A stretch of DNA of 64,000 nucleotides from Candidatus Saccharimonadota bacterium (GTDB lineage: Bacteria > Patescibacteriota > Saccharimonadia > Saccharimonadales > UBA10212). Below the pieces are notes generated by a model. That model was not told the origin of the DNA and did not search any database. It saw only the letters and a list, made by a program, of their open reading frames with translations. The stretch lies in NCBI GenBank assembly GCA_016187125.1, contig JACPKF010000007.1:835-64834 (forward strand), written 5' to 3'. This document shows positions 14,078-27,796 of this stretch, piece after piece (position 1 is the first letter of the stretch; every line of letters starts with the position of its first letter). The position numbers and the translations under genes were made by a program.

Positions 14078-14107
14078 TTCTTAAGAATAATAGAATAGGA
14101 ATAATTA
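14078..14107. repeat. copy of the ttctaatattcttaagaatattagaa palindrome family (imperfect)
   Basis: cattctaatattcttaagaataatagaata lies about 45 nt upstream of ORF 14153. Other copies are at 48498-48523, 48780-48807 and 51421-51452. Confidence 0.7.
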
Positions 14108-14152
14108 AAGCATAAGTAGTCGCCGAGAAAACCCTGGGTTTATAATTGAAAT

Positions 14153-14692
14153 ATGTCAGAGGATTACACAGGCCCACTTCAGGTAGAAGAAATTCCTTTT
14201 AACCCTTTAAACAAAACGGGTTGGGAAAAAGAAGACGGACAAATAAATGAAGTTGTGATACGAGGAGAGCGAAAGCCAGTTCATCCAACAAATAACCTTC
14301 GAATGATTTTCGGTTTCCATAAAAGGCTAATTAGTGGCGATCGTACCGATCCTTTTATGCAGGTATACAAAGGTGTATTTCAAACAAATAGGCTAGGTGA
14401 AATTTTGGAACACTTTGGTAAAAAGTTTCCTCTTCTATATGCAAGAATGAGTGAGATTAGCGAGCAACATTATCAGAACGCGCAAGATCGGAATAATGCA
14501 TTAGTGAAGCTTGGGCCCAACTCCCCAGAATATGAGACTTTTGTCAAAAAACAAGGGCGCACTGTCGAAGAAGCGGTTGAGCAAGATTACATTTTTTCCA
14601 TGGGCTATGATGGTTTAGCCGAGTCAGCGGTTGAACTTGATCCCGAATATCCAGTAGAAAATCTTCGGGTGCTCACCGGCTATAACGGCTAA
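14153..14692 (+). CDS. hypothetical protein (179 aa)
   Basis: Intact ORF. A TATAAT (14141-14146) lies 6 nt before the ATG. No motif recognised. Confidence 0.45.
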   Translation: MSEDYTGPLQVEEIPFNPLNKTGWEKEDGQINEVVIRGERKPVHPTNNLRMIFGFHKRLISGDRTDPFMQVYKGVFQTNRLGEILEHFGKKFPLLYARMSEISEQHYQNAQDRNNALVKLGPNSPEYETFVKKQGRTVEEAVEQDYIFSMGYDGLAESAVELDPEYPVENLRVLTGYNG

Positions 14693-14732
14693 AATACCTA
14701 CCTACTATCTGTCTGGCGTATAATTTTAAGTA

Positions 14733-14808
14733 ACCCGCAGATCTTTTTGGGGAGTTGCGCAATCCGCCGAAGGCGGACTGCTCCACCCTGAAAAGGTATG
14801 GGGCAAGT
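14733..14808 (+). repeat. second copy of the F1 hairpin element
   Basis: The core gcgcaatccgccgaaggcggactgctccaccc (14757-14788) and flanking inverted repeats align with 12089-12173. Confidence 0.75.
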
Positions 14809-14819
14809 GGCAGAGACTT

Positions 14820-14852
14820 ATGAGTGAAAGAAAGAAATTAGCGATTATAGAC
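14820..14852 (+). pseudogene. displaced duplicate of the polA 5' end (MSERKKLAIID)
   Basis: atg agt gaa aga aag aaa tta gcg att ata gac parallels the real start gtg agc cgt aag aaa ttg gct atc ata gac at 14953. Differences are synonymous, apart from ATG vs GTG at the start codon and one extra codon. Confidence 0.8.
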
Positions 14853-14927
14853 CCCAGCACCAAAATCTTGAAATTCTGCAATAGGGATATTCTCCCTCTT
14901 CTGCATTCAGGATTTGGTGCGGGGCAG
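14853..14927 (+). repeat. 75-nt MITE-like element (family F2), termini cccagcaccaaaatc / gatttggtgcggggcag
   Basis: Inverted termini. The first 20 nt (23 counting the preceding gac) and the last ~20 nt are near-identical to 24539-24611. The centre is variable. Confidence 0.8.
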
Positions 14928-14952
14928 GTCGCGGCTATAGAAAGTTGGCGAA

Positions 14953-17643
14953 GTGAGCCGTAAGAAATTGGCTATCATAGACGGAAAGAGCGTTTTCTAT
15001 AGAGGGTACTACGCCTTGCCGAATTTAAGTACCAAAGACGGAATTCCGACTGGTGGAGTTTATGGTTTCGCGTCTATGAGCCTGGAGCTTATTAAAAAAC
15101 TCAAACCGGATTATGTGGCCGTAGCTTGGGATAAACCCAAAACCAACATTAGAGCCCGGCTAAAAATGTATCCGGAGTATAAGGCCGGCCGCAAACCGGC
15201 GCCGCCGGATTTTTACACCCAAATCCCGATTTTGCATGAACTGCTAGAAGCCTTCGGTTGGCCACTGTATGAACTGGACGACTATGAAGCCGACGATATT
15301 ATGGGCACCTTGGCAGTCCAGGCCCGTAAAAAAAATATCGAAACCCAGCTTATAACCTCCGATCTTGACGCCCTGCAGCTGATCAACGGTCACGTCAAGG
15401 TCTATGCCCTAAAAAAAGGCTTCTCTAATATCGAAGAGTTTCATACCGAGAGTTTTGAAGCCAAATACGGCCTCAAAGCCGAGCAATTTTTGGATCTAAA
15501 ATCTCTAAAAGGTGACAGCTCCGATAATATTCCCGGCGTACCAGGCGTGGGTGAAAAAACAGCTATTGCTCTGCTTCAACAATACAAAACCCTGGACGGA
15601 GTTTACAAAAACTTGGAGTTAGTTAAAGACAGCCTACGCAAAAAACTTGAGGACGGCAAAGACTTAGCCTATTTGAGCAAGCAACTAGCTAAACTTTGGA
15701 CTAATGCGCCGCTTAAATTGAACCTGGAGGCGATGGACACCAGTAAATGTGATACCGACCGTCTGCGGAGTTTGCTGCAGGAACTGGAATTTCGCAGTTT
15801 GCTGAACAACTTGCCGGAGAATATGCGGGTTACACCCGCAGTAACAAGTAATATGCCCCAAGCAAAAAGCGGAGATAAATTAAAGCTCCAGGAACATAAA
15901 TTAATTGATTCAGACGCTAAACTGGCTGAAATCAAGTTGGCTGGCGATAAGATTTTTATTCATTCTCGAGCTGCCGGCCGGCACGGTGCCGACCCGCAGG
16001 TTTTGATTATCGGCACCGACAAAATTTCTTACACGCTTGATTTAACCAAGCTGGACCATAAAAAGGTCCAGCAAGCTATCAGCCATCAGCTAAAGGTTAG
16101 TAGTTCGGTGGTTGGCTATGACTTGAAATCTGATATTAAAGTTTTAAAAAACCTTGGTATCCAACCGCCGCCTGTGGCTCATGACGTCCTGGTAGCGGCC
16201 TTTTTGCTAAATCCCTTAATGCGAGTTCAAACTTTGACCGAACTGGCCACGGTAAATTTGGGCTACGGCGGCACGAGCTTAGAAGATTTGCCAACTGAAG
16301 ATTTTATAGAACGCTCCGCCGAGCTTATGGCAATTCTCATTAAGCTTTACCACGTCCAGCAACACGAATTTGGCGAGGCGCCAACGCTCGAGCGCTTAGC
16401 TAAACAAATCGAATGGCCGCTTATTCCGGTGTTAGCCGATATGGAATACCGCGGTATTAAACTCGACGTTAAGTATCTGAAAAATTTTTCCAAAAAAATA
16501 GAAGATTCGATTAGCGATCTGGAGCAAACCATTTATGGCCACGCCGACTACGAGTTTAATATCAGCTCGCCGGCCCAGCTAGCAGACGTACTATTTACCA
16601 AACTCAATCTTCCCAAGCAGGGAATTAAAAAAGGCAAAACCGGCTTGTCAACGGCGGCCAGCGAGCTGGAAAAATTGCGCGGCCTGCATCCGATTATTGA
16701 TTTAATTAGCCAGTACCGCGAAGTAACTAAGCTCAAAAATACCTACGTTGACGCCTTGCCGGCCTTAGTGGACGCCAGTAGCCGCATTCACACTACTTTT
16801 AATCTGACAGTTGCTCAAACCGGCCGGCTATCGAGTGCCGATCCGAATTTGCAAAATATTCCGGTCCGCACCGAGCTGGGTAAAAATATCCGCACCGCTT
16901 TTATAGCGGAGCGCGGCAATGTTTTTGTCAGTGCCGATTACAGCCAGTTCGAAATAAGGCTAGCGGCCGCCTTTTCGGGCGACCAAGATATGATTGACGC
17001 TTTTAACCAAGATATGGACATTCATGCCGAAACCGCCGCGCTGGTGTTGGGTATCCCGGTTGATAAGGTAACTAGCGAACAGCGTTATGCGGCTAAAGCC
17101 GTCAATTTTGGCATCATGTACGGCCAAGGCCCGCATGGTCTGAGTGTTGGTACGGGTATGGATTACACAGCGGCCCGGGAATTTATTGCCAGATATTTTG
17201 AAGTGCGGCCCAAACTCAAAGAATATATAGATTCGATTCGTAGGGAAGCCGAAGAGCAGGGCTTTGTAGAGACAATCCTAGGCCGCCGCCGGCCAACTCC
17301 GGACGTTAAATCTTCTAACTTCGCGGTCCGCGAGGCTGCTTATCGGGCGGCAATAAACATGCCATTGCAAGGCAGTGCCGCCGATCTCATGAAAATGGCG
17401 ATGGTAGCGGTGAACAAAGAATTTGAGAGCCGCTACCATCGCCATCCTGAGCGGAGCGATAGCAGAGTCGAGGGATGGCCTCGAATGTTACTTCAGATCC
17501 ATGACTCTATACTTGTTGAAACCCCTGAGTCGTTAACTAAACAAGTGGGCGATTTGCTTAAGGACACCATGGAAAACATCCACAAACTACCCGTGAAGTT
17601 GGCAGTAGATATTTCTGTAGGTAAAAATTGGGGCGAACTCTAG
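14953..17643 (+). CDS. polA: DNA polymerase I
   Basis: 896 aa with a 5' nuclease N-terminus, a 3'-5' exo-like domain and pol motifs (DYSQFEIRLAA, KAVNFGIMYG, QIHDS). GTG start. Confidence 0.95.
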   Translation: MSRKKLAIIDGKSVFYRGYYALPNLSTKDGIPTGGVYGFASMSLELIKKLKPDYVAVAWDKPKTNIRARLKMYPEYKAGRKPAPPDFYTQIPILHELLEAFGWPLYELDDYEADDIMGTLAVQARKKNIETQLITSDLDALQLINGHVKVYALKKGFSNIEEFHTESFEAKYGLKAEQFLDLKSLKGDSSDNIPGVPGVGEKTAIALLQQYKTLDGVYKNLELVKDSLRKKLEDGKDLAYLSKQLAKLWTNAPLKLNLEAMDTSKCDTDRLRSLLQELEFRSLLNNLPENMRVTPAVTSNMPQAKSGDKLKLQEHKLIDSDAKLAEIKLAGDKIFIHSRAAGRHGADPQVLIIGTDKISYTLDLTKLDHKKVQQAISHQLKVSSSVVGYDLKSDIKVLKNLGIQPPPVAHDVLVAAFLLNPLMRVQTLTELATVNLGYGGTSLEDLPTEDFIERSAELMAILIKLYHVQQHEFGEAPTLERLAKQIEWPLIPVLADMEYRGIKLDVKYLKNFSKKIEDSISDLEQTIYGHADYEFNISSPAQLADVLFTKLNLPKQGIKKGKTGLSTAASELEKLRGLHPIIDLISQYREVTKLKNTYVDALPALVDASSRIHTTFNLTVAQTGRLSSADPNLQNIPVRTELGKNIRTAFIAERGNVFVSADYSQFEIRLAAAFSGDQDMIDAFNQDMDIHAETAALVLGIPVDKVTSEQRYAAKAVNFGIMYGQGPHGLSVGTGMDYTAAREFIARYFEVRPKLKEYIDSIRREAEEQGFVETILGRRRPTPDVKSSNFAVREAAYRAAINMPLQGSAADLMKMAMVAVNKEFESRYHRHPERSDSRVEGWPRMLLQIHDSILVETPESLTKQVGDLLKDTMENIHKLPVKLAVDISVGKNWGEL
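17442..17478 (+). repeat. in-frame hairpin insert (family F4, CCTGAGC...GTCGARGG) inside polA
   Basis: ccatcctgagcggagcgatagcagagtcgagggatgg is translated as HPERSDSRVEGW just upstream of the QIHDS motif. Related units are at 24445-24508 and 62650-62790. Confidence 0.65.
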
Positions 17644-17646
17644 CTT

Positions 17647-18285
17647 ATGAATAACTCGATTCCTGATCAAAGAGATTTTTGGAATAGAAGACACGGTAAT
17701 GAGCTAGAGGAAGACAGAGACGTTAATCCATTCGCTATCCTTGCTGAGCAAAGTTTTCAACCGCATTCTAAAGTTTTAGATTTGGGCTGTGGAAGGGCAA
17801 GCGATGCGGTTTATTTTGCGAGTAAAGGCCACAGTGTTTTAGCAACTGACTTTTCAGAGACAGTAATCGATCATAACAAAAAAACTTTGAGTAATTCTGG
17901 AGTTGATTTTCAAGTTTTTGATTTACGCCAGTCGCTTCCAGCAGGATCGGAAAGCTTCGACGCCGTTTATTCTAGCCTATCTCTTCATTACTTTGGCGAT
18001 AAAATTACCAAAGGAATCTTTAGTGAGATTCACCGAGTACTCAAGACTGGCGCGACTTTTGCTTTTAGTTGCAAGTCTGTCAACGATCAGCACTACGGCG
18101 AAGGAAGCGAAATAGAAAAGAATGTTTTCATATCCCCTAAAGGCTACCTTAGACATTTCTTTTCTGAGAGTTATGTAAAAGAACTTTTAGCTGATGGCTT
18201 CGAAATTGATCTGCTTGAAGAAGTGCAAGAGGATTATGTGGGAGAGGATTCACATATTATCCACTGTATTGCCCGGAAGTTATAA
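17647..18285 (+). CDS. class I SAM-dependent methyltransferase (cassette between two polA 3' ends)
   Basis: Motif I is VLDLGCGRASDAVYFASKGHSVLATDFS. The ATG lies 3 nt after the polA stop. Confidence 0.85.
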   Translation: MNNSIPDQRDFWNRRHGNELEEDRDVNPFAILAEQSFQPHSKVLDLGCGRASDAVYFASKGHSVLATDFSETVIDHNKKTLSNSGVDFQVFDLRQSLPAGSESFDAVYSSLSLHYFGDKITKGIFSEIHRVLKTGATFAFSCKSVNDQHYGEGSEIEKNVFISPKGYLRHFFSESYVKELLADGFEIDLLEEVQEDYVGEDSHIIHCIARKL

Positions 18286-18291
18286 ATTGTA

Positions 18292-18339
18292 AAACTCAAA
18301 GTCGATATCTCCACCGGCAAAAACTGGGGCGAACTATAA
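18292..18339 (+). pseudogene. displaced duplicate of the polA 3' end (KLKVDISTGKNWGEL*)
   Basis: Parallels 17596-17643 (KLAVDISVGKNWGEL*) with 9 synonymous and 2 replacement codon differences. Confidence 0.85.
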
Positions 18340-18545
18340 ATATCTTCCATTTTGTTTCGGCAAAACGGAAGCCAAAAACCGACGGACATTCGAAAACACT
18401 ATCGAATTTACTAACGCTGTCTGCCGCGCCAAAACAACGCAAGCGGTCCCTCACTTTCTAGGGCAGAGGTTCGGGATTGAGTTTCGGCTGGACTCGCCAG
18501 CCAGCTACCAAATTCATCGGTTTTCTCGAGTCCGGAGACAGAAAG
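18340..18545 (+). repeat. copy C of the A/B/C/D/E structured repeat family
   Basis: ctgccgcgccaaaacaacgcaagcggtccctc ... gagtttcggctggactcgccagccagctaccaaattcatcggttttctcgagtccgg aligns with copies A and B. Confidence 0.65.
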
Positions 18546-18659
18546 ATTCTTTTGTTAGGACGGTTTAACACTAAATCCAGAGAAGATAATCTCTTCGATC
18601 TCTCAGGGTATAATTTGATTAAGGAGCCAGGTATAAATAACGACTTCATTTTGCCGGAA

Positions 18660-19646
18660 ATGCGATCAAGATTTTCTGAAATCCGTTTGGGATTTGAACA
18701 ACTTAAGATTATTGGCCTAGAAACTGGCGATCGTTTTTTTGAAACATATGGCCCAGGTAATTTAATTGAAGGAATGGATCGTCCATACGAAAGATTTCAC
18801 GACTACGAGCTGCTGCTAGTAATTATTCAGGGTATTGACCCAGATAAATACCTGCACATACATAAAGGTACACCTTTTTACTTTTTGGCTTGGTTGGCAT
18901 TTGCAATCAGGGATTACGAAAAGGCGGTATTTTATATGGACTCTGCGCTATCGGAAGACAAAAGAAAAAGCCCAACTGAGCAATTTTCTTCTTGGATACA
19001 AAACCCTGCTGGCAAATTTTTCTGCCTTAATCCAAAAGATCACACTGCGAGGATCATTACACAGCAGTTAAAGGACATACTAGAAAGTCAGTTTACGAGA
19101 TTCAATACAATTTCTAACTTGCCCACTCTGCTTAATGTTGATAGTTGGGTAGGAAATTTCGTACATCCTATGATAAAGGCGGAGAAGTTTCCTTTCGTAA
19201 CTTCAATTTATAGCTATCTTTTAGAGTTTAAAGACCGGCACCAGATGTTAAACCTCAAACCATTACTTGATGGATCTACCGAACCATATACAGTGCATCT
19301 TTTTAAGGGAGGTTTAATATTTGAATCTCTAATGAAACACTATTACGAATCTAGAGCCAAAAAACTCAGTGAATGCCTAAAGAATGAAGATTTTAAAAGG
19401 GACTTCTCTTTGAAATTAGTTGATACTTCAGCTAACAGCCTACGAGAAATACTTGATAAGATTATTGATAATACTGCAGCAACTAGCTTCAATACAACAT
19501 CAAAGCTTCGAAATACTACGGGGCACAAGCTAGTCTGGGATAAAGTCTTTAATCTGCCAGAAAACTACCAGAAACTGTTTGAGCAAGAACTTAACGCAAT
19601 TTTTTTCGTTATCGGGAAGCAAATTGAGAAAGGCCTAGCTATATAA
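18660..19646 (+). CDS. hypothetical protein with a C-terminal HEPN-like RNxxxH motif (AbiD/Abi_2-like signature)
   Basis: KLRNTTGHKLVWD resembles the hRNxxAHHxxLWN signature of Abi_2 HEPN proteins. The start is uncertain: the ORF extends to 18477 but overlaps repeat C. Confidence 0.45.
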   Translation: MRSRFSEIRLGFEQLKIIGLETGDRFFETYGPGNLIEGMDRPYERFHDYELLLVIIQGIDPDKYLHIHKGTPFYFLAWLAFAIRDYEKAVFYMDSALSEDKRKSPTEQFSSWIQNPAGKFFCLNPKDHTARIITQQLKDILESQFTRFNTISNLPTLLNVDSWVGNFVHPMIKAEKFPFVTSIYSYLLEFKDRHQMLNLKPLLDGSTEPYTVHLFKGGLIFESLMKHYYESRAKKLSECLKNEDFKRDFSLKLVDTSANSLREILDKIIDNTAATSFNTTSKLRNTTGHKLVWDKVFNLPENYQKLFEQELNAIFFVIGKQIEKGLAI

Positions 19647-19704
19647 AACTTACAGGATTTTGAATAAATCCAGCGAAAGTATGACCATTGGAGGAATATT
19701 CTCT

Positions 19705-20454
19705 TTATTCCTTTGTGAATGCTTGTTTGGCGATTTGAGGTGCAACAAATAGTTTGATTGTTTGCACGATATCTTCAATTTCGCTTTCCGTCATCTCAAT
19801 TTTCATGCCTTTTTTTATAAGACTTGATTGTTCTGCAGTTTTGACGGCTATTGTAGTGTTTTTCAGAATTGTGGGTTTGTTTAAGAGCATAGGCTTTCCG
19901 CCTACTAGATACTCCATATGATAAAGGTTCATCTTAATATCCTTTTGGGCAACACCTTTGTGATGTTCGATAGTGGATCGAAGATCGAAATACCCATCAA
20001 CTGCGTCAGCTAAAAATTTCTTCAGTTTTCCCAAAATAGCTATTTTCTGAGGTTTTGAAAGATGCCCATCCTTGCCAATCTTCTGTGCCTTCATAGATAT
20101 TTGCTGGCTTATGTATTCGTCGAGCTCGACTTTAGTATGGATATCTCTATCTACCTTCTGAGGCATGGAGCAGAGTTTTCTAATAGCAAGCAACTCATCA
20201 ATAAAATCATTAAAGGAACGAATAATTGAACAGTAGGCATTACGAATTTCATTTTGAGCAGCGATTGAACTATTAATTTGTCTAGTTATTGCTATATTCG
20301 TCGGGCTATTTTCAGAAAGTACTCCTCTCTCGGCATAGCCCCCGCTTTCAATAGAACGTAAAACGCTACGTAAAGACAGAAGTTGTTCATCGAGCCGGCG
20401 ATATAGTTGGTCAACGTAATGGTTAACATTGATATTAATATTCATCCCCCCCAT
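19705..20454 (-). CDS. hypothetical protein with an Rx4H motif (LRSTIEHH)
   Basis: Intact ORF convergent with the previous one. It contains a possible HEPN-type Rx4H motif. Start chosen at an internal Met. Confidence 0.4.
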   Translation of the reverse strand: MGGMNININVNHYVDQLYRRLDEQLLSLRSVLRSIESGGYAERGVLSENSPTNIAITRQINSSIAAQNEIRNAYCSIIRSFNDFIDELLAIRKLCSMPQKVDRDIHTKVELDEYISQQISMKAQKIGKDGHLSKPQKIAILGKLKKFLADAVDGYFDLRSTIEHHKGVAQKDIKMNLYHMEYLVGGKPMLLNKPTILKNTTIAVKTAEQSSLIKKGMKIEMTESEIEDIVQTIKLFVAPQIAKQAFTKE

Positions 20455-20602
20455 TCTATACCTACGGGTCTTTAAATAAATCCGGCAGAATAACACTTTA
20501 TGCGGCAGGTCTGGATTTGGGTTTGGGGAAGTAGCGGCGGAGACAAGGCAGATAGAAAACGGGTAATCCCACCCCGTTGGTACAAGTCCATGTAAAAGCG
20601 TG

Positions 20603-20632
20603 TTGACTTTTCAGGATACTTATTGTAAAAAT
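20603..20632 (+). promoter_or_regulatory. sigma-70-type promoter TTGACT-17-TAAAAA, 8 nt before the ATG
   Basis: TTGACT (20603-20608), 17-nt spacer, a TG-extended A/T-rich -10, then the ATG at 20640. Confidence 0.45.
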
Positions 20633-20639
20633 ATCAATT

Positions 20640-21257
20640 ATGAGCATCTCATCTCCAACGGATATGAAGGTATTTAACCCACGTGATCTTAATGGACAAC
20701 CTCAAACAGCGTTCATTGAAGCAACTAGGCAAGCTCATATGAGGTTTGGAGTATTCCCAGAATTCGTGGGTTTGGCGTTAAGAGGTTCTCTGACCAAGGG
20801 TTATTCAACTGAGGGCTCTGATGTTGACGCAATAATGCTGTGGGACTCATTTTTGTCTAGTCAAAAATTGGCTCTTCAAGAACTTGCGCAAGCTGACTTT
20901 AAGTTCATGGTGGATGGGACTCCAACAGTTAATCTACAAGCTGAAGACATAAATGTTGCAGTAATTTTAGAGGACGTTATGTATTATCCGTCCAAACTCT
21001 CTAATATTTTTCGGCCTGTAACAGGGAAAAAAGTAGATCTTTATAGAAAATACTGGGCAATTCACTTGGCTGGTTTGCCGGAGTCTGAAAGACAAATTAT
21101 AATTCGCGGAATGGCGATAAGCCTTGCAAGGGACGACCTTCTTGGGTGGAGTAAAATGGTTGAAAGAGTGTCATCTGTACCAGGTCCACAAGACTACCGT
21201 AGACATAGACTGGAACTCTGGCTTGGAAGACTAGACCACTTCTTAGCAGAGCAATAG
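20640..21257 (+). CDS. minimal nucleotidyltransferase (MNT/pol-beta superfamily) domain protein
   Basis: LRGSLTKGYSTEGSDVDAIML fits the GS-x10-DxD NTase signature. Confidence 0.65.
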   Translation: MSISSPTDMKVFNPRDLNGQPQTAFIEATRQAHMRFGVFPEFVGLALRGSLTKGYSTEGSDVDAIMLWDSFLSSQKLALQELAQADFKFMVDGTPTVNLQAEDINVAVILEDVMYYPSKLSNIFRPVTGKKVDLYRKYWAIHLAGLPESERQIIIRGMAISLARDDLLGWSKMVERVSSVPGPQDYRRHRLELWLGRLDHFLAEQ

Positions 21258-21355
21258 AGAAATATGTAAGTATAAGCCCGGTAGTAGACCTGCCTAGGGC
21301 GGACTCACTACCGGGTAAGCACCTAGTTTTTGTCGACATCCGTACCTAGGATTTA

Positions 21356-21958
21356 TTAAGGTTTTAGAATTACTCTTTTACTGTGTCCAGGAGAATGAGA
21401 TCTATCAAATCGCGCTATTGGAAACTCTGGAGTTCCGGATACCACTGCATCAGCAAACTCCATTAAATCTGAATCCTCGGGTGTATAACGAAAGGCCGCA
21501 ACCTTTCCTAAGTAGCGACTCACACCAAAGCCACTTGCTCTATGGCTCCTCCTCTCCAAAACGGCATAGCCGGTTTCTCCTAGGCCACGCTCGCCAAGGT
21601 CAGATAAACCAAATAAGTCTCTAATAGCTTCCCCTACCGGCCTTTCGGGCTGGTAGTGAAGCTCTGCTAGGTTAAAGTAGCCTAGCAACACATCTTTATT
21701 GGCGCCCATTGGTGTGAGGTCAACCCTATGGCGACCTACGCTAAAATCAGTATTTAAAACGCCCAGCTTAGGGTACTCTCTACTCCCATCATATTGGGCC
21801 ATAAAATTTGCAACTGAAGCTAGATGACCAACAGCTTGAAAACGCTCGAACAGAGCCCTCTCCGCTTCAGCAATATGAATAACTGGGAATCCCGCGTGGA
21901 ATTCAAGTGGTGGACTTTGAACACTCAAAACTCCTGATCTTTCTATAGTTTTTAGCAT
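21356..21958 (-). CDS. hypothetical protein (200 aa)
   Basis: Intact ORF. No motif recognised. Confidence 0.4.
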   Translation of the reverse strand: MLKTIERSGVLSVQSPPLEFHAGFPVIHIAEAERALFERFQAVGHLASVANFMAQYDGSREYPKLGVLNTDFSVGRHRVDLTPMGANKDVLLGYFNLAELHYQPERPVGEAIRDLFGLSDLGERGLGETGYAVLERRSHRASGFGVSRYLGKVAAFRYTPEDSDLMEFADAVVSGTPEFPIARFDRSHSPGHSKRVILKP

Positions 21959-22083
21959 ACTAACTCCTTTGAATAGATAATAGTCTAAAAAGCTAGGAAC
22001 GCAAGCATAAGCACCTCTGTTTTTTTGTTGAAATGAATGATGAAAATAATAAACAGGATATAATTATGTCCGAGCAGGAGTTT

Positions 22084-22902
22084 ATGAATATCCCAAATTT
22101 GAAGATGAATAACGAGCAGAAGATTCCGCAAGTTGGGCTGGGCCTTTGGATGAACAAAGACGGTGAGGCTTGCAGGCAATCAGTTAAATTCGCGCTGGAA
22201 GCCGGATATCGGCATTTTGATTCGGCTCAGGCTTATGATAATGAGCAATTTTTGGGTGAAGCTATCAAAAAGGGCGGGGTCCCGCGTGAAGAATTGTTTA
22301 TTACCACTAAAATCTTGAATGACAACCAGTGGTGGAACGATATTATTCCCAGTTTCGAAAAATCGCTGGAAAATTTACAGACGGACTACGTCGATTTACT
22401 GTTACTTCATTTTCCGGTCACCGAAACACGTCGGCCGGCTTGGCGCAGAATGGAAGAAATTTATAAATCCGGCCGGGCCAAATCCATCGGCGTTAGCAAT
22501 TATATGATCCATCATCTTGAGGAACTGCTAAAAGAAGGTGATATTAAACCGGCAGTTAACCAAGTTGAACTCCATGTCTTTCTGCAACAGCCAGAGCTAG
22601 TAAAGTTCTGCCAGAAAAACGACATCGTGGTTGAAGCTTATTCGCCGCTGGCTCACGGTAATGGAATGGATGACCCGGTGCTGGCTAGTATTGCCAAAAA
22701 ACACGGAAAATCCACGGCTCAAATTATGATCCGCTGGTGTATCGAGATGGGAACGGTGCCTCTGCCAAAATCGACTCATCAGGGACGTATAAAAGAGAAT
22801 ATTGATATTTTTAATTTTAAGCTTGATAAGCAAGACATGGCCGATATCGCCAAGCTTGACCGCGATTTTAGAACCTGCTGGGATCCAACTCACGTACCAT
22901 GA
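22084..22902 (+). CDS. aldo/keto reductase
   Basis: IPQVGLGLW, GYRHFDSAQAYDNE, LLLLHFP and AYSPLAHG are AKR signatures. The ORF extends to 22033 and the start was chosen by N-terminal length. Confidence 0.8.
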   Translation: MNIPNLKMNNEQKIPQVGLGLWMNKDGEACRQSVKFALEAGYRHFDSAQAYDNEQFLGEAIKKGGVPREELFITTKILNDNQWWNDIIPSFEKSLENLQTDYVDLLLLHFPVTETRRPAWRRMEEIYKSGRAKSIGVSNYMIHHLEELLKEGDIKPAVNQVELHVFLQQPELVKFCQKNDIVVEAYSPLAHGNGMDDPVLASIAKKHGKSTAQIMIRWCIEMGTVPLPKSTHQGRIKENIDIFNFKLDKQDMADIAKLDRDFRTCWDPTHVP

Positions 22903-23804
22903 TGACTACTCAAGATAACCAAAAATTTGTCGAGTTAATTAAGTCCCACGAGCCCACGGCTGGGGATATTGAGTTTGTAGAACATGGCTACGACAACATT
23001 GTGGCGGTTGTTGATCGCCAGAAAGTTTTCCGCTTTCCGCGAACCGAAGTTGATAAGTACCGTCTTTGGTTCGAGGCCGAGCTTTTACAAAAAATGGCTG
23101 GCAAAATACCTAAAACGCCGCGAGTTATTAGGCTCAATCAACGACCATTTTACGCAGTTTATAGCTATCTTCCGGGCAACCATCTAAGCGAGGAAGAGAT
23201 TGGCGGCTTATCTGCTAAAGACCAGGCGGAGATTGGCAATCAGTTAGCCGACTTTATAGCTAGCTTTAATAAACTTATTTCGCCCAGCGAAGTATTATCA
23301 CTGCGCAGCAGTTCAGGCCTAGCTGCCCAACCGGGTGAAGAAACTTGGCCAATTTATTTAAAACGGGTTCTTGGCGATTCTTCTTTCCCCAGCAACCCAA
23401 AAATCGAACAACTAGCTAAAGATTACTATCAAAAATGGCTAAATTTAAAAGACGATTTGCCAATAATTACCGTCCATGACGATTTACATGCCGGAAATTT
23501 ACTTTTTAGCGATGGCCAAATAAGCGGCATCTTTGATTTTGGCAATGCTAGCGCTGGTACGGCTACTCAAGAAATGCGCAACATATTGAGGTTGGGAGAC
23601 GATGTTTTACGAGCCTCAATAAGTCGTTACCAGGACTTAACAGGCCAGACAGTAGATCCGGAAAAAGCCCGTTTCTGGATGATTGTTAACGATCTAGCCT
23701 CTATTTGTCTGCGCCTATTAGACGGCAAAACAGATGCTCCTGGCTTTGCCCGGGCCCAAAAAAATCTAAAAAAATGGGGAGTAATAAGCGATGTGGCGGG
23801 ATAG
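22899..23804 (+). CDS. aminoglycoside/choline-kinase-type phosphotransferase (APH family)
   Basis: HDDLHAGNLLF and GIFDFGNA are the Brenner and DFG-like APH motifs. Confidence 0.75.
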   Translation: MMTTQDNQKFVELIKSHEPTAGDIEFVEHGYDNIVAVVDRQKVFRFPRTEVDKYRLWFEAELLQKMAGKIPKTPRVIRLNQRPFYAVYSYLPGNHLSEEEIGGLSAKDQAEIGNQLADFIASFNKLISPSEVLSLRSSSGLAAQPGEETWPIYLKRVLGDSSFPSNPKIEQLAKDYYQKWLNLKDDLPIITVHDDLHAGNLLFSDGQISGIFDFGNASAGTATQEMRNILRLGDDVLRASISRYQDLTGQTVDPEKARFWMIVNDLASICLRLLDGKTDAPGFARAQKNLKKWGVISDVAG

Positions 23805-24522
23805 AGCTGAAGCTGGGCAGGAACTAGCTGGAGCCCTTATGAAATATAAAGACAGGAACGCGGTGGTTTATGGGCTGCCGCGGGGCGGAGTAGTGGTAGC
23901 GGCCGAAGTTGCCCATGCACTTAACGCCCCTTTGGATCTGATTATTGCTAGAAAAATCGGTCATCCGGCTCACGCGGAATACGCCATCGCCGCCGTAACC
24001 GAGGACTCAGAACCTGTAGTAAATGAAGCAGAAGTTGCTTCGATTGGCAAAGACTGGTTTGAGCGAGCCCTAAAAGAACAAAGAGTCGAGGCCAAGCGCC
24101 GCCGGGAGCTTTATTTAGGTGGTCGCAGACATATTTCACCGAAAGGCAAAATCGCAATCGTGGTTGATGATGGTATAGCTACCGGTTTAACGCTCCAAGC
24201 GGCAATTAAGAGCTTAAAGCCCCGGCGTCCAGCTAAAATTGTGGTGGCCGTGCCAGTGGCGCCGGATGATACAGTAGCTGAAATAGAAGCTGAAGTAGAT
24301 GAGATGGTATGCTTGCATAAGGAAAAAGATTTTTTTGGCGCCGTTGGCAGCTATTATCAATTTTTTGAGCAAGTAGAAGACAGCGAAGTTATTGATCTTC
24401 TGCAAGAGTTTGATACGTACGACCCATTCGATAAAACTCAGGCTCGTCCTGAGCAACGTCGAACGGACGACGAGCTCAGTATCAATCCTGAGCATAGTCG
24501 AAGGATTGAAAATGAGCATTGA
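23791..24522 (+). CDS. phosphoribosyltransferase-family protein
   Basis: The PRPP loop IVVDDGIATGLT is present. The N-terminus RDRAEAGQELA..YGLPRGGVVVA is typical of putative PRTases. The C-terminal ~30 aa are encoded by F4 repeats. Confidence 0.7.
   Translation: MWRDRAEAGQELAGALMKYKDRNAVVYGLPRGGVVVAAEVAHALNAPLDLIIARKIGHPAHAEYAIAAVTEDSEPVVNEAEVASIGKDWFERALKEQRVEAKRRRELYLGGRRHISPKGKIAIVVDDGIATGLTLQAAIKSLKPRRPAKIVVAVPVAPDDTVAEIEAEVDEMVCLHKEKDFFGAVGSYYQFFEQVEDSEVIDLLQEFDTYDPFDKTQARPEQRRTDDELSINPEHSRRIENEH
24445..24508 (+). repeat. two tandem F4 hairpins forming the C-terminal tail of the PRTase
   Basis: The hairpins are cgtcctgagcaacgtcgaacggacg and caatcctgagcatagtcgaaggattg. Confidence 0.65.
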
Positions 24523-24538
24523 AGCCGTAATATTCGAC
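24512..24538 (+). pseudogene. displaced duplicate of the HAD-hydrolase 5' end (MSIEAVIFD)
   Basis: atg agc att gaa gcc gta ata ttc gac overlaps the stop of the upstream gene. It parallels the real start gtg att aaa gcc gtg ata ttt gac at 24630. Confidence 0.8.
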
Positions 24539-24611
24539 CCCAGCACCAAAATCTTGAAGCTCCATAATCTGATTGCAGACTACTTAAGCTCAGGATTTGG
24601 TGCGAGGCAAG
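24539..24611 (+). repeat. second copy of the F2 MITE-like element
   Basis: cccagcaccaaaatcttgaa ... tcaggatttggtgcgaggcaag has the same termini as 14853-14927. Confidence 0.8.
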
Positions 24612-24629
24612 TTGCTTTGGGGTATCGCA

Positions 24630-25202
24630 GTGATTAAAGCCGTGATATTTGACTGCTTCGGTGTCTTAACGAAGGATTGGTGGCGGGAATTTTGTGCCTC
24701 AGTACCGCCCGGCCCGGGTCTGCAAAAAGCCAAAGAGCTCAACCACCTCTATGACGCCGGACTTATAAGCTTGAAAGAATTTGTAGCCGGTGTTGAACAA
24801 GTCACGGGCCGTGAACCCCAACCGATCGAAGACATTTTTGCTAGTCCCGAGCCAATTAAAAACACTACTTTGCTTGAATATATAAAAAGCTTAAAAACTG
24901 GCTACAAGATTGGCATGATTAGCAACGTGGGCACTAATTGGGTGAGGGATTATTTTTTGAGCCCTGAGGAGCAAAGGCTTTTTGACGATATGGTGTTTTC
25001 TTTTGAGGTCGGAACTACCAAACCTGACCCCAGGATTTACGAGCTAGCTACCAAGCGTCTGGGCCTTAAGCCCCAGGACTGCGTTTTTATAGACGATATT
25101 GAAAGATATTGCGAAGCCGCTCGGGCCACAGGCATGAAGGCTATCCTATACAAAGACTTTGAACAGATGAAAACTGAGCTCGATAAGCTTCTTCAGGCCT
25201 GA
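24630..25202 (+). CDS. HAD-superfamily hydrolase (subfamily IA-like)
   Basis: Motif I AVIFDCFGVLT, later SNVG and the DD motif FIDDIERY. GTG start; the ORF track starts at 24597 inside the F2 element. Confidence 0.75.
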   Translation: MIKAVIFDCFGVLTKDWWREFCASVPPGPGLQKAKELNHLYDAGLISLKEFVAGVEQVTGREPQPIEDIFASPEPIKNTTLLEYIKSLKTGYKIGMISNVGTNWVRDYFLSPEEQRLFDDMVFSFEVGTTKPDPRIYELATKRLGLKPQDCVFIDDIERYCEAARATGMKAILYKDFEQMKTELDKLLQA

Positions 25203-25248
25203 CCTTTAGTTTTGAGTAATCACGAAAAGTTTGCTGGCAGATAGTAAA

Positions 25249-25288
25249 TTACCCCAAAAAGTGTCCGATCGGACACTTTTTGGGGTAA
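25249..25288. terminator. bidirectional hairpin terminator, perfect 40-nt palindrome centred on CCGATCGG
   Basis: ttaccccaaaaagtgtccga|tcggacactttttggggtaa lies between convergent genes. Confidence 0.7.
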
Positions 25289-25305
25289 AATCATACTTTG
25301 ATTAA

Positions 25306-25557
25306 CTAAGAACTGTTTCTGATAACTAATTTTTTACCACCCAAATTACACTTTTTTATAAGTAGTTGTTTTTCCAGCTGCAAGGTGGCGGCCAGGCCCG
25401 AGCCAGGCACACTCAGGATAAAAGCTTCACGCTCTAATTTAACTTTGCAGCTGACGTTATATTTCCGCCGAACGTAATCTTTAATTACTGCCATTTCGTC
25501 CGGTGGCAAGGCTATTTTTCGACTACCTAAAATTTTCCTTAAGCTTTCCACACTCAT
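25306..25557 (-). CDS. DUF721/DciA-like small protein
   Basis: An ~83-aa basic protein whose layout resembles DUF721. Start at the internal Met, with TGcTATACT 6 nt upstream. Confidence 0.45.
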   Translation of the reverse strand: MSVESLRKILGSRKIALPPDEMAVIKDYVRRKYNVSCKVKLEREAFILSVPGSGLAATLQLEKQLLIKKCNLGGKKLVIRNSS

Positions 25558-26683: not shown

Positions 26684-27796
26684 ATGCCTGAGCTTCCTGA
26701 AGTTGAGATTATAAAACAAGGCTTATCTAAACTATTGCCCGGGCGGATTATTGCCGACGTTTGGCACAACTGGCAAAAATCTTTTCCGAACGCGCCAGCG
26801 GATGTGGCCCGATTTTTGGTGGATGCCAAGATCATATCAGTTAAACGTCGGGCCAAAGTCTTGATAATTGAACTTTCCAGCGGCTACTCGCTGGTTGTCC
26901 ATTTAAAAATGACAGGGCAACTAGTTTTTGTGCCAAAAACCAGCGAGCAAAAAGCCCGCCTTCGCCAAAGCTACGGTCGACAGGCAAAAAGCAAAAAGCA
27001 AAAAGCCGAAAAAAAGTTTGGTGGTGGGCATCCGACCAAAAGCTTAATAGGTAAGCTGCCGGACAAATCAACCCGAGTCATTGTTGAGTTTTACCCCCCG
27101 AAAGGCGCGCGGGACATACGCTTGAGTACGTTGCAAGGAAAAGTTGAGCAACGGACTAAGCCGTATATGAAATACGGTGAAGGAGTAGCGCAGACTTTGA
27201 CACAGCAAAGTGCCAAGAGTGTCGCCGGAGTGCCAGGGCGACAGCCCGAGCAGCAGGGCGACACGGCGCATGGTCCGCGACTTTTTTTTAATGATCAGCG
27301 TAAGTTTGGCTGGATGCGCCTGCTGCCGACGGTTGAGGTGCCCCAGATTGACTTTATGAAAAAAGTCGGCCCGGAGCCGCTGGAAGATAATTTTACGGTT
27401 GGTGTGTTTATTGAAAGACTCAACCGCCGAAAAAACAGCTCGATAAAAGCTATGCTGCTGGATCAAACCGTGCTGGCTGGAGTGGGGAATATCTATGCTG
27501 ACGAATCCTTATTTGCCGCTAAAATCCATCCAGCTACCCCGGTTTTTAAAGTTTCTAAAGCAAAATTAGTAATGCTCCATAATGCCCTGCGCCAAATACT
27601 GCAGCAGGCAATAGATAAAGGCGGCAGCACGGACCGAAATTACGTTGATGTCAAAGGTAAAAAGGGGAGTTATCTGAACTTTGCCCAGGTTTTTAGAAGA
27701 CAAGGCCAAGTGTGTTCCCGCTGCGGAGGCGTCATACAGAAGATACGCGTAGCTGGAAGAGGTACTCACATATGTCCAAGGTGTCAAAAACGTTAA
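26684..27796 (+). CDS. mutM: formamidopyrimidine-DNA glycosylase with a ~62-aa internal insert
   Basis: N-terminal MPELPEVE, H2TH (GVGNIYADESLF) and a C-terminal zinc finger (CSRCGG...CPRCQ). It is 370 aa against about 270-290 aa for typical Fpg. Confidence 0.88.
   Translation: MPELPEVEIIKQGLSKLLPGRIIADVWHNWQKSFPNAPADVARFLVDAKIISVKRRAKVLIIELSSGYSLVVHLKMTGQLVFVPKTSEQKARLRQSYGRQAKSKKQKAEKKFGGGHPTKSLIGKLPDKSTRVIVEFYPPKGARDIRLSTLQGKVEQRTKPYMKYGEGVAQTLTQQSAKSVAGVPGRQPEQQGDTAHGPRLFFNDQRKFGWMRLLPTVEVPQIDFMKKVGPEPLEDNFTVGVFIERLNRRKNSSIKAMLLDQTVLAGVGNIYADESLFAAKIHPATPVFKVSKAKLVMLHNALRQILQQAIDKGGSTDRNYVDVKGKKGSYLNFAQVFRRQGQVCSRCGGVIQKIRVAGRGTHICPRCQKR
27092..27277 (+). repeat. in-frame translated insertion element (family F3) inside fpg
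   Basis: The core gagtacgttgcaagg...ccgtatatgaaatacggtgaaggagtagcgcag aligns with 37493-37583 in the UDG gene. Contains hairpins ccgtatatgaaatacgg and gtcgccggagtgccagggcgac. Confidence 0.75.

Follow-up and report, generated by a model that had tools for sequence, protein, structure and literature searches.

Bacterial MITEs and palindromic repeats (Correia/NEMIS, RPE of Rickettsia, ERIC/IRU, REP/BIME) are short, non-coding, multi-copy and hairpin-forming, are located at gene boundaries, are present or absent at orthologous sites, form modular subfamilies and may be co-transcribed and even translated. The same applies to F2, a hairpin-forming, MITE-like repeat of about 75 bases in Saccharibacteria, which was analyzed in a DNA stretch of 64,000 nt (the window) and in further genome and metagenome contigs. 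Unlike these repeats, F2 does not generate a short target-site duplication of fixed type (e.g., TA), the window and about 250 kb of loci contain no autonomous element sharing its ends, F2 is associated with gene-terminus duplications of 36-45 nt, the two copies of which stem from diverged lineages, and the same module recurs at the same gene across genomes.

Integrative elements that restore their target gene are known from phage 21 and e14 in icd and from islands and prophages in tRNA 3′ ends. As in the composites of F2 and a duplicated gene end described below, a second, element-associated copy of the terminus makes the insertion harmless, the copies differ by synonymous or compensated substitutions, tRNA T-loops are among the targets, and integration of a circle by one crossover results in the same topology. 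These elements are kilobases long, encode an integrase and have their duplicated ends at opposite element ends, whereas the F2 composites comprise about 115 nt, encode nothing and carry the hairpin inside the spare copy. In addition, the F2 crossover point seems to be variable (dnaJ L043 vs. the others).

Integron attC sites and CTX phage attP(+) share with F2 an imperfect hairpin in which bulged bases are conserved and the apical region varies, a stem that is better on one strand (conserved T.G pair) and insertion beside a short motif that is of the G|T type on the opposite strand. Unlike integron attC, F2 lacks RYYYAAC / GTTRRRY boxes (no GTTRRRY was seen at its ends by inspection) and targets gene ends instead of attI or dif; its copies are solitary without cassette arrays, and no tyrosine recombinase (IntI/Xer) is present among the scanned ORFs. 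Elements derived from IS200/IS605 resemble F2 in their hairpin-defined ends, in oriented insertion 3′ of a short motif, in the lack of a classical target duplication and in a single-strand logic that would suit incoming transforming DNA. They carry a pair of unlike subterminal hairpins and insert at a fixed tetra- or pentanucleotide, whereas F2 has one long hairpin and an A|C preference with a single conserved flank base (A); no Y1 transposase was found in the sequences examined.

In mitochondria, a mobile insertion with an endonuclease ORF supplies a replacement for the C-terminus of Allomyces atp6, and mobile GC-cluster/double-hairpin elements are known. Inter-lineage transfer that leaves foreign and resident terminus copies side by side, as well as the mobility of small hairpin elements in compact genomes, are common to these cases and the F2 composites. 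The mitochondrial examples have a homing endonuclease gene or no gene-end duplication, whereas F2 combines a non-coding hairpin with a duplication, in bacteria. A literature search for a described equivalent of the composites yielded nothing relevant.

Anatomy of the HAD Locus

According to the original prediction, the 5′ end of a HAD-family hydrolase gene is duplicated around an F2 copy, with a pseudo-start ATG that overlaps the stop of the upstream phosphoribosyltransferase gene. Every described feature is present in the sequence, and the following elements were annotated:

23791-24522, + strand: phosphoribosyltransferase (PRTase) gene (ORF; Pfam Pribosyltran on the identical product)
24512-24537, + strand: outer (pseudo) copy of the HAD start, left part (alignment to 24633-24652 of the real gene)
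24512-24637, + strand: upstream ORF of 41 codons, running from the pseudo-start across F2 in its sole open frame, stop TAA at 24635-37
24538-24611 (left edge 24538/9), + strand: F2 hairpin, CCCCAGCACCAAAATCTTGA ... TCAGGATTTGGTGCGAGGCAAG (fold, covariance model and copy comparison)
24612-24629, + strand: right part of the pseudo-copy (TTGCTTTGGGGT = codons CFGV) and 5-6 nt (alignment spanning the in-silico excision point)
24630-25202, + strand: functional HAD-family phosphatase gene with GTG start, MIKAVIFDCFGVL... (ORF and homologues)

The PRTase TGA stop (24520-22) is overlapped by the ATG at 24512, from which the left part of the outer copy (ATGAGCATTG..; ATG AGC ATT GAA GCC GTA ATA TTC GA, peptide MSIEAVIFD) runs up to the left end of the hairpin (CCCCAGCACC..). 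It differs from 24633-24652 mostly in third codon positions. The real start (segment ..GCCGTGATATTTGA) reads GTG (24630-24632) ATT AAA GCC GTG ATA TTT GAC TGC with the peptide MIKAVIFD, and the N-terminal consensus MIKAIIFDCFGVL of 867 HAD homologues matches this copy.

The predicted layout of F2 (24539-24611), 18 nt and GTG was found as well, whereas the 18 nt are no neutral spacer. Their first 12-13 nt (TTGCTTTGGGGT, relic end ..GGGGTATCGCA) extend the pseudo-copy and match CTGCTTCGGTGT in the real gene; therefore, the hairpin lies inside an extra gene-start copy of about 42 nt and not between two copies. This foreign-looking copy with F2 within corresponds to the first 14 codons of the phosphatase gene. 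The relic segment 24612-24629 contains an SD-like GGGG 7-10 nt upstream of GTG 24630 and now forms the leader of the real HAD start. In the upstream ORF, the stop codon follows 5 nt behind the first base of the real start (polA: 8 nt, dnaJ: 5 nt), and the stop/start overlap geometry is also seen in L041-L044.

In the relative L039, the orthologous PRTase-HAD junction is empty, with neither element nor duplication, and the PRTase stop directly overlaps the HAD ATG. This bears out that F2 is a repeated, inserted element. The closest HAD orthologue is 74% identical, with saturated synonymous sites.

Composites at the polA and Sigma-70 Genes

Further composites in the window are located at the 5′ end of polA and the 3′ end of a sigma-70 gene:

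14820-14851, + strand: polA pseudo-start, ATG AGT GAA AGA AAG AAA TTA GCG ATT ATA GA
14852-14928, + strand: second F2 copy (fold and covariance model)
14929-14952, + strand: leader from F2 to the real polA start (by inspection)
14953-17643, + strand: DNA polymerase I gene, polA (ORF)
12056-12206, + strand: sigma-70 3′ end composite (functional tail, 12 nt, F1, pseudo-tail)

The polA layout (14820-14953) is the same as at the HAD locus: pseudo-start, F2, real start. The pseudo-start peptide (ATG 14820) is MSERKKLAIID and the real one (GTG 14953) MSRKKLAIID, with five differing synonymous codons, no amino-acid change and one extra codon. The stop of the upstream ORF (14820-14963) follows the first base of the real start by 8 nt. 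At both the HAD and the polA locus, the junction reads ..GAC|CCCAGCACC.

The sigma-70 composite comprises the functional tail (12056-12088), the F1 element (12101-12173) and the pseudo-tail (12174-12206), which directly borders on the ATG (12207) of the gene that follows. The two tails encode the same amino acids and differ by six synonymous codon changes. Here, the intact gene is located on the other side of the element, and 12 nt are unmatched.

The F2 and F1 Hairpin Repeats

In total, 26 distinct F2 copies were identified in the genome and metagenome contigs searched, all of them in Saccharibacteria-like contigs and every one between ORFs. F1 is a sibling with the same termini and the same apical module, of which three copies were found, each with different flanks. 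The covariance model detected five members of the F family within the 64-kb window. The F2 copy at the HAD locus (24538-24611) has a minimum free energy of −36.2 kcal/mol (z=−3.5) and a covariance model score of 82.6 bits, the copy at the polA locus (14852-14928) −45.7 kcal/mol (z=−3.8) and 86.9 bits; across the F2 copies, folding z-scores range from −3.5 to −5. In the family alignment, the arms pair over 16 consensus pairs, 11 of which show compensatory changes, and the ends of F2 read A|CCCC(N)GCACC ... GGTGCGGGGCARG(C/T). The element is open in one reading frame only. A 59-nt core of the HAD-locus copy is identical to the copy L004 at an unrelated locus of another genome; the closest sequenced relative of that genome, 47_16b, has a HAD that is only 74% identical.

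F2 and F1 are best modeled as non-autonomous, hairpin-forming mobile repeats of Saccharibacteria that insert at A|CCCC-type junctions. As expected for MITEs, F2 and F1 occur as dispersed copies with conserved ends in unrelated contexts, the arms of F2 pair to form an overall hairpin, and the presence/absence polymorphism at an orthologous site is given by the empty junction of L039. A short, fixed-length target-site duplication is not found: no direct repeat of 2-10 nt is common to the F2 copies, and instead diverged duplications of 36-45 nt occur at a third of the sites. A search for a full-length partner revealed no arm pair 0.5-3 kb apart in the window and about 250 kb of loci.

Rfam 15 at gathering thresholds gave no match in the window, and a permissive scan of 11900-25400 only chance-level miRNA matches (E up to 5), none on an F element. 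No tRNA or tmRNA was found in the window. A phage origin of F2 was rejected since the scan of viral contigs yielded no match. Likewise, a role of the F elements as intrinsic terminators or promoters was dropped, as there was no terminator-like call on them and only one chance-level promoter match (24506-24534).

Junction Preference and Insertion Contexts

Sequence-specific targeting of an Asp codon in an hhhhD motif had been suggested. The junction preference stood and the codon did not: in a logo of the left flanks of 25 F2 copies, only the A before CCCC (1.4 bits) and the element's own C are conserved, resulting in the junction A|CCCC. The C of the "GAC" is the first base of the hairpin stem. 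Junctions are located in a Tyr codon of dnaJ (TA|C; L031, L041-L043), in Asn codons (P0124, P0125), in the D-loop and T-loop of one tRNA-Leu (L015), at gene 3′ ends on the opposite strand (L006, L009, L010, L033) and in plain spacers. Besides GAC, which also precedes the element in L006 and L008, the triplets TAC, AAC, GAA and TTT occur. The recurrence of GAC in the window is explained by RA|C as the preferred dinucleotide context together with the conserved ..ID/..FD N-termini of both targets, which lie within about 30 nt of the start codon.

Duplicated Gene Ends

The expectation that every F2 copy is paired with a duplicated gene start failed: a gene-end duplication of 36-45 nt is clear at six and probable at three of the 26 copies, 3′ ends and tRNA ends included, and 17-20 copies have no detectable duplication. 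In the window, the flank duplications reach z=5.5 and 6.3-6.5 against shuffled flanks, and an amino-acid-level scan of 63 window ORFs found duplicated termini only beside F elements, with no match in a five-fold control space. Therefore, the pattern is not due to chance. Composites were found at HAD, polA, sigma-70, dnaJ (five genomes), ychF, pnp (two genomes), the L006 gene and the tRNA-Leu 5′ and 3′ ends; in total, the architecture was seen in 15 or more contigs, which stem from different projects and assemblers, and at nine or more different genes. The HAD locus is one case of this wider pattern, in which hairpin repeats land at gene and tRNA ends without breaking the genes.

After in-silico removal of the hairpin, the outer copy runs 6-16 nt beyond the insertion point (HAD, L006, L009 and both L015 tRNA-Leu ends); for dnaJ, about 14 nt were read from the sequence. 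Thus, the hairpin lies inside the extra, non-functional copy, and at HAD, L006, dnaJ and the tRNA 5′ end it is found within one copy and not between copies. The composite period is 109-118 nt in six of eight composites, the outliers being polA (130 nt) and L006 (142 nt). Most often, both copies agree fully over the 3-7 nt that immediately precede the hairpin. In L015, neither of the pseudo tRNA ends (5′ and 3′) pairs with the other or with the resident T-stem. The pnp composites common to L010 and L033, the tails of which are of low complexity, look vertically inherited, so that some composites appear to be old.

Divergence of the Two Copies

Of 43 differences between the two copies, counted across composites, 33 fall on third and only one on a second codon position. 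This corresponds to 34.5 synonymous differences per 36.7 sites vs. 8.5 nonsynonymous differences per 134 sites (P~1e-15). For example, the L006 copies have 13 identical residues and 10 changed codons, and no composite with identical or near-identical copies was found. Since the differences are almost only synonymous, the copies originate from diverged lineages and not from local duplication and decay. A diversity-generating retroelement with a template/variable repeat pair was excluded, as the copy differences are not adenine-specific.

In the dnaJ composites of five genomes, the module is more conserved than its host gene, with 83-91% identity vs. 43-56% at the saturated third positions of dnaJ. 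One common pseudo-start allele lies beside different resident alleles in four of the genomes. In L043, the two alleles are swapped and the loss of similarity coincides with the insertion point, which is what a crossover at the opposite homology end should produce; together, the allele patterns suggest crossovers at either end. Alternatively, the conserved dnaJ pseudo-start could reflect selection on the initiation region of the upstream ORF.

Origin of the Composites

Several explanations for the composites were considered. Recognition of the Asp codon of the hhhhD motif, or of AT(A/T)(ATA/TTC)GAC, with a duplicated gene start at each insertion would account for the ..AT. ... GAC|CCCAGC context of both window copies and for the GAC in L006 and L008, but this is highly improbable in view of the flank logo, the other junction triplets, the insertions in tRNA loops, antisense strands and spacers and the majority of copies lacking a duplication. 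Just as improbable is a translational device evolved in place, i.e., GAC-to-GAC ribosome bypassing of the T4 gene 60 type or a leader-peptide attenuator. GAC does precede the hairpin and end the second copy at HAD and polA, and the hairpin is stable with an upstream ORF open through it, but the dnaJ codons are TAC/TAT, the take-off codon is not followed by a stop, and the gene proper is equipped with a start codon and an SD-like motif of its own. In addition, the element is missing at the orthologous site, and element and duplication also occur at tRNA and gene 3′ ends, where translation plays no part. An assembly artefact, in which contigs were mis-joined through the multi-copy repeat and flanks of two strains or loci juxtaposed, deserves consideration, as four short-read assemblies of the same species end inside F2 at the HAD locus, with none of the four spanning the join across it. 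It is nevertheless very unlikely, since mis-joins would not yield homologous gene ends to both sides of the element at a constant period, and the same architecture recurs across projects, assemblers and genes.

A long target-site duplication generated in situ by staggered cuts about 40 bp apart, with later divergence of the copies, agrees with the nearly constant duplicated length (~36-45 nt), with the [copy][hairpin][copy] appearance of the sigma, L009 and pnp composites and with the composite shared by L010 and L033, which suggests long persistence. A silent copy should change at all codon positions, but third positions predominate and synonymous sites are saturated at identical amino acids; in addition, identical or near-identical copies were found in no composite and the hairpins of HAD, L006, dnaJ and the tRNA 5′ end lie inside one copy, so that this origin is improbable. 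A classical target-site duplication was rejected for the position of the hairpin within one copy and the non-identity of the copies. Somewhat less improbable, though still unlikely, is a rescue by a patch, in which the end of the resident gene is disrupted by the hairpin. Transformation would then supply a homologous piece of DNA from a diverged relative, which would be joined a few nucleotides downstream by homology-facilitated illegitimate recombination (one end illegitimate, the other by homology within the gene). The outer copy would then be the resident gene end, and the inner copy and part of the gene body would be foreign. In agreement with this, the outer copy forms one continuous piece of gene end, interrupted only by the inserted hairpin, and keeps an ancestral-looking overlap with the neighboring gene (HAD, pnp), the copies differ like orthologues, and pilus and competence-type genes are present. 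On the other hand, the host would have to survive the disruption of sigma-70, polA, dnaJ and tRNA-Leu, duplication lengths should vary whereas the period is nearly constant, the pseudo tRNA ends of L015 do not pair, and the four dnaJ composites with a shared outer allele and a host-varying inner copy are the opposite of what is predicted.

The explanation we prefer, tentatively and with slightly less than even confidence, is a module of hairpin and gene-end fragment that spreads horizontally and integrates in the manner of a small circle, with subsequent translation of the gene by coupling to the upstream ORF. At gene ends, the mobile unit would comprise about 110-118 nt, i.e., the hairpin and about 40 nt of gene terminus distributed over both hairpin sides, the latter being the sequence into which the hairpin once inserted. 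It would pass between diverged genomes, plausibly as taken-up DNA, because the host organisms encode type IV pilus machinery; pilus genes are present within the window. A circular or unit-length intermediate would integrate at the homologous gene end by one crossover or one copy-choice turn within the shared 20-30 nt, possibly with the help of a recombinase acting in trans. Such a circle-like topology would necessarily lead to a tandem gene-end duplication with the hairpin in one copy. Since the gene survives only if the outer copy is the one that contains the hairpin, no other products would be seen. At the HAD locus, the outer copy would retain the old ribosome entry point at the PRTase stop. 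Ribosomes would pass through the hairpin within the upstream ORF of 41 codons, reach its stop 5 nt into the real start and initiate anew at GTG 24630, aided by the GGGG of the relic segment. Observed in support of this model are the repeat family and its hairpin, the vacant orthologous site, the tandem arrangement with a roughly constant period, the synonymous character of the copy divergence, the higher conservation of the module relative to the host gene and the stop/start overlap, whereas the intermediate, the guidance by homology, the transfer via DNA uptake, the coupling and the trans-acting recombinase are inferred.

Ordinary RecA recombination requires longer homology than the shared 20-30 nt at ~80% identity, so that the module model must assume another mechanism. 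Given at least nine different targets, the formation of new modules cannot be rare in this model. No circle or excision product of the module was seen. Among the roughly 40 window ORFs and the 10 ORFs adjacent to other copies that were scanned with Pfam, no transposase was detected, the sole recombinase match being one large serine recombinase beside L007. The gene-restoring unit of ~115 nt has no integrase and no ORF except the read-through upstream ORF; its second terminus copy keeps the gene intact and is of a different evolutionary origin. The sigma-70/F1 composite fits the module model only as a special case with the hairpin at the edge of the homology.

Whether these composites constitute a previously undescribed class of "homing modules" that are ultra-small (~115 nt), protein-less, made up of a hairpin and a split fragment of their own target gene and colonizing the termini of essential genes, is more doubtful, though possible. 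The carried fragment would guide the insertion to the same gene end in distant genomes and repair the damage, so that a selfish repeat could occupy sigma-70, polA, dnaJ and tRNA termini in streamlined, naturally competent CPR bacteria.

Implications for Dense Genomes and Their Annotation

The genomes of Saccharibacteria and other CPR bacteria are tiny and so densely packed with genes that insertions find hardly any space. Provided that the module model holds, a non-coding repeat spreads in such genomes by carrying a copy of the target gene end. This would be a third route to harmless insertion, requiring only about 115 nt, beside introns and inteins, which are removed after transcription or translation, and integrase-encoded islands. 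If the carried homology guides integration, the modules would represent short-homology-directed insertion as it occurs in nature. Saccharibacteria have reportedly been transformed in culture recently. From the duplicated ends, an exchange of DNA between lineages with saturated synonymous sites is directly evident. In genome annotation, F2 composites would lead to mis-called starts, stops and small ORFs, and the repeat breaks assemblies.

Remaining F Elements in the Window

Two additional F elements were annotated in the window:

2380-2465, − strand: degenerate F2-like copy with decayed right arm, in a spacer (covariance model, 30.6 bits, E 1e-5)
14733-14808, + strand: F1 element in the polA leader, termini and apical module as in F2 (covariance model, 56.7 bits)

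Downstream of the polA F2 copy, the leader 14929-14952 shares the motif CTATAGA with codons 17-19 of polA, a match found by inspection that has no statistical support on its own and is a weak sign that the leader may prolong the pseudo-copy.

Composite gene ends in the window

At the 5′ end of the HAD-family phosphatase gene (HAD), the original prediction described a pseudo-start, a copy of the repeat F2, 18 nt and the true start, and this layout is present as described; F2 is a hairpin-forming mobile repeat of about 75 nt. Its second F2 locus was likewise found, between the pseudo-start and the real start of polA. A third case, a sigma-70 tail duplicated around the sibling repeat F1, was brought to light by an amino-acid-level scan of all window ORFs.

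Features of the composites and a further F2-like copy in the window (coordinates, strand, feature)
2380–2465, −: decayed F2-like copy, located in the spacer that separates a YbaK-type editing-domain gene from a 114-codon ORF
12056–12206, +: sigma-70 3′ end composite, last 10 codons and stop present twice around F1 (12101–12173)
14820 (ATG), +: polA pseudo-start, MSERKKLAIID (sequence)
14852–14928, +: second F2 copy, between polA pseudo-start and real start (sequence)
14953 (GTG), +: polA real start, MSRKKLAIID (sequence)
24512 (ATG), +: HAD pseudo-start, overlaps the stop of the phosphoribosyltransferase gene (PRTase), reads MSIEAVIFD (sequence)
24520–24522 (TGA), +: PRTase stop (ORF reading)
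24538–24611, +: F2 copy at HAD, 74 nt, then 18 nt before the true start (sequence)
24630 (GTG), +: HAD true start, MIKAVIFDCFGVL; the N-terminus agrees with the consensus of hundreds of orthologues

The sigma-70 copies encode an identical protein with 6 codons changed synonymously, and the ATG of the next gene follows the pseudo-tail directly. The flank similarities (z = 5.5–6.5) are far beyond shuffled controls. In the amino-acid-level scan, duplicated termini were found only next to F repeats and none in a five-fold control space.

A further small inverted-repeat element (CCATTCGATAAAACTCAGG ... CCTGAGCATAGTCGAAGG; 24424–24505, +) lies in frame in the PRTase 3′ end and makes the protein about 35 residues longer than its orthologue in a relative (L039); a fragment of this repeat (CCATTCGACTATGCTCAGGG) is present in the composite spacer of L006. 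Directly 3′ of HAD, an 18-bp perfect hairpin with T-runs on both strands (25249–25288) is probably a bidirectional terminator.

The F1/F2 repeat family

F2 forms a single long imperfect hairpin (−36 to −46 kcal/mol, z −3.5 to −3.8). A pattern made from both hairpin arms was searched in species-representative genomes (10 loci), metagenomes (23 loci) and viral contigs (no match). The host taxonomy rests on the titled records of the genome collection (L001–L010), all of which are Saccharibacteria or Patescibacteria, and many metagenome contigs are the same contigs as these. After duplicate removal, 26 distinct F2 and three F1-type copies remained. Both types have common termini, (A)CCCC(N)GC ... 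GCGGGGCA(A/G)G, and a common apical module (..AAT-small hairpin-ACT(A/G)C..), with compensatory changes in 11 of 16 consensus pairs and a T·G pair conserved on one strand. A covariance model recovered five members in the window, including a decayed one. All 29 copies are located between ORFs, mostly less than 50 nt from a gene end, and none within a long ORF. No terminators were called on F elements, no T-runs follow them and no Rfam family matches the repeat. F1/F2 is a new hairpin repeat family.

Three observations speak for mobility of F2. At the PRTase-HAD junction of L039 the element is missing and the PRTase stop overlaps the HAD ATG. The HAD copy shares an identical 59-nt core with a copy at an unrelated locus of genome RIFCSPHIGHO2_12_FULL_47_17, while the closest HAD orthologue found, in its close relative 47_16b, is only 74% identical. 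Finally, four independent assemblies of the source species (L034–L037, Logan contigs with identical PRTase) stop inside F2, 50–56 nt past the PRTase stop, which is a repeat-induced assembly break.

Between the near-identical strains of L002 (6846–6925) and L011 (8753–8827), the F2 flanks are the same and the apical module differs (CCCCGCCAGAGGCGGG vs TCTGATTACAG), implying that the tip was replaced or converted at a fixed site. In L007 (6196–7991), F2 lies beside a five-tRNA-gene cluster and a gene for a large serine recombinase with Recombinase and Zn_ribbon_recom domains; no other recombinase was seen near any F copy.

Insertion junction

The original prediction placed the F2 junction immediately after the Asp codon of an hhhhD motif and saw in this a suggestion of sequence-specific targeting. 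A left-flank logo of 25 copies contradicts this: only one flanking position is conserved, an A (1.4 bits) immediately before the CCCC of the element, and not an Asp codon. The C of ‘GAC’ is the outermost stem base, which in L004 co-varies with its partner (T..A). The same A|CCCC junction occurs at a dnaJ Tyr codon, at Asn codons, in the D-loop and T-loop of tRNA-Leu, on the antisense strands of gene 3′ ends and in spacers. That both window junctions fall in an hhhhD motif is a coincidence of the two targets, which are conserved ..ID/..FD motifs less than 30 nt from the start codon. An Asp-codon model is therefore unlikely, and targeting gives way to a broader pattern of gene-end duplications.

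Architecture of the duplications

Only some of the F2 copies are paired with a duplicated gene end: duplicated termini are clear at six and probable at three of the 26 copies, and two F1-type copies, one at sigma-70 and one at the 5′ end of tRNA-Leu, add to these. The duplicated ends are protein N-termini (HAD, polA, dnaJ), protein C-termini (ychF, L009; a GGGVKC-type enzyme, L006; pnp, L010 and L033; sigma-70) and both ends of one tRNA-Leu(tag). In this tRNA locus (L015, 1–520), an F1-type element and a pseudo 5′ end lie upstream, and F2 and a pseudo 3′ end downstream; the pseudo-end acceptor halves do not pair, either mutually or with the live tRNA.

After in-silico removal of the element, the outer (spare) copy runs on 6–16 nt beyond the insertion point in five composites, e.g., ..ATA TTC GA^T TGC TTT GGG GT vs the real ..ATA TTT GAC TGC TTC GGT GT in HAD and GTGGCGAAA^TTGGTAGACACGTTAG vs GTGGCGAAACTGGTAGACGCGTCAG in the tRNA. 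For dnaJ, automatic alignment gave only 3 nt past the junction; the codons read ..TAT TA^C GAA GTT TTG GGG, a relic of YYEVLG. The structure is therefore a short tandem gene-end duplication with the hairpin inside the outer, non-functional copy. Homologous positions are 109–118 nt apart, hairpin included, in six of eight composites, so the duplicated segment is about 36–45 nt; the exceptions are polA (130 nt) and L006 (142 nt, containing a 27-nt piece of another repeat). In-gene insertions lie only within about 30 nt of the gene boundary, because only there does the short spare segment hold a complete terminus.

In L045 (1190–1310), F2 in the ftsA leader is flanked by a duplicated leader segment (AAGTAAAAAGCAGTATG / AAGTAAAAAACAAATG), which suggests that non-coding targets undergo the duplication too, normally without its being recognisable.

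Divergence of the two copies

The copies of six coding composites (57 codons) were compared by Nei-Gojobori counting and a binomial test. Of 43 differences, 33 are at codon position 3 and one at position 2, corresponding to 34.5 synonymous differences per 36.7 sites and 8.5 nonsynonymous per 134 sites (P ~1e-15); in L006, 13 residues are identical and 10 codons changed. Silent decay in place would alter all positions, so both copies evolved as functional gene ends until recently, and local duplication followed by drift is excluded. Judged by this coding-type divergence, the two copies must stem from diverged lineages with saturated synonymous sites.

Searching with a profile of three upstream-ORF peptides gave nine small ORFs, and four of these are further dnaJ composites (M[A/T]KRDYY|P[S/A]TKILK...). 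Across the five dnaJ composites the protein is 68–80% identical and third positions of conserved codons 43–56% (saturated); the 112-nt unit of pseudo-start, hairpin and relic (the spare-copy piece beyond the hairpin) is 83–91% identical. Four genomes have the pseudo-start allele GCC AAG CGT GAY TAT TAC in common, with a different resident allele and upstream gene context in each. L043 shows the swapped arrangement: the shared allele occupies the first 20 nt of the real dnaJ gene (19/20 matches), similarity ends at the insertion point and the pseudo-start is of the resident type. The relic accompanies the hairpin in all dnaJ composites and has acquired GGGG or GAGG 7–10 nt before the real ATG. 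These comparisons indicate that hairpin and gene-end fragment move together.

Expression geometry

In HAD, polA and dnaJ, the element is inserted after codon position 2, so the pseudo-start ORF enters the only open frame of F2 (PSTKILK...). It ends 5, 8 and 5 nt, respectively, past the first base of the real start codon, and L041–L044 have the same stop/start overlap. This geometry is that of termination-reinitiation coupling, which may operate here: ribosomes entering at the former initiation site would open the hairpin and pass to the new start.

Possible mechanism

An explanation has to account for a hairpin within a gene-end fragment, an adjacent intact copy, a near-constant period, copies of different lineages, stronger conservation of the unit than of its host gene and allele swapping. 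A horizontally moving module of about 115 nt, guided to its target and repairing it, is the favoured, quite possible but still tentative, source. A small circle of hairpin, relic and gene-end fragment would integrate by one crossover in the homology on the gene-boundary side, matching the composite topology exactly; a single turn of copy-choice synthesis would lead to the same product. With a crossover near the gene boundary, the outer copy would end up with the incoming allele (four dnaJ genomes); with one next to the hairpin, the inner copy would (L043). A crossover beyond the hairpin would break the gene, and such products were not seen. The unit-length intermediate, the homology-guided integration and the route by DNA uptake are presumed, and neither circle nor enzyme was observed in the loci and ORFs scanned. 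Genes for PilM, PilN and a PilB/PilT-type ATPase of a type IV pilus (57681–63862, +) bear on DNA uptake.

The moving module has difficulties of its own: RecA would need longer and less diverged homology, the origin of modules for at least nine different targets is not accounted for, sigma-70/F1 fits only as a special case with the hairpin at the homology edge, and the pnp composite common to two species looks old. Its main rival, in which foreign DNA taken up by the cell rescues a resident gene that was disrupted, agrees with the contiguous outer copy but with neither the constant period nor the dnaJ allele pattern, and is rather unlikely. A long target duplication in situ fails the codon test and is improbable; ribosome bypassing and assembly error are unlikely sources of the arrangement as well.

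Comparison with known systems

F1/F2 resembles MITEs in copies, hairpin and empty site, but has neither a short target duplication nor a known autonomous partner. Phage 21 (icd) and tRNA-targeting islands bring along a substitute for the gene end that they disrupt. F1/F2 is alike in effect but lacks an integrase, is smaller by two orders of magnitude and is inserted inside the spare copy. Integron attC and CTX attP(+) share the bulged hairpin with variable tip, whereas their defining boxes are absent in F1/F2. Among eukaryotic organelles, the foreign atp6 C-terminus of Allomyces comes closest. No account of this arrangement was found in the literature, an absence that is weak evidence.

Other repeats in the window

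A 98-nt repeat (77% identical; 27124–27221 and 37493–37590, +) lies in frame in two DNA-repair genes, Fpg (26684–27796, exceeding its L039 orthologue by about 50 residues) and a UDG-family gene (36993–37859, Pfam match interrupted), and looks like a translated insertion similar to the Rickettsia palindromic elements. A 34-nt perfect-type palindrome, TTCTAATATTCTTAAGAATATTAGAA, occurs four to five times (14067–14100, 48495–48528, 48778–48811, 51421–51454) and may be an operator or another repeat family. A 113-nt repeat is present at 58714–58826 and 63863–63975.
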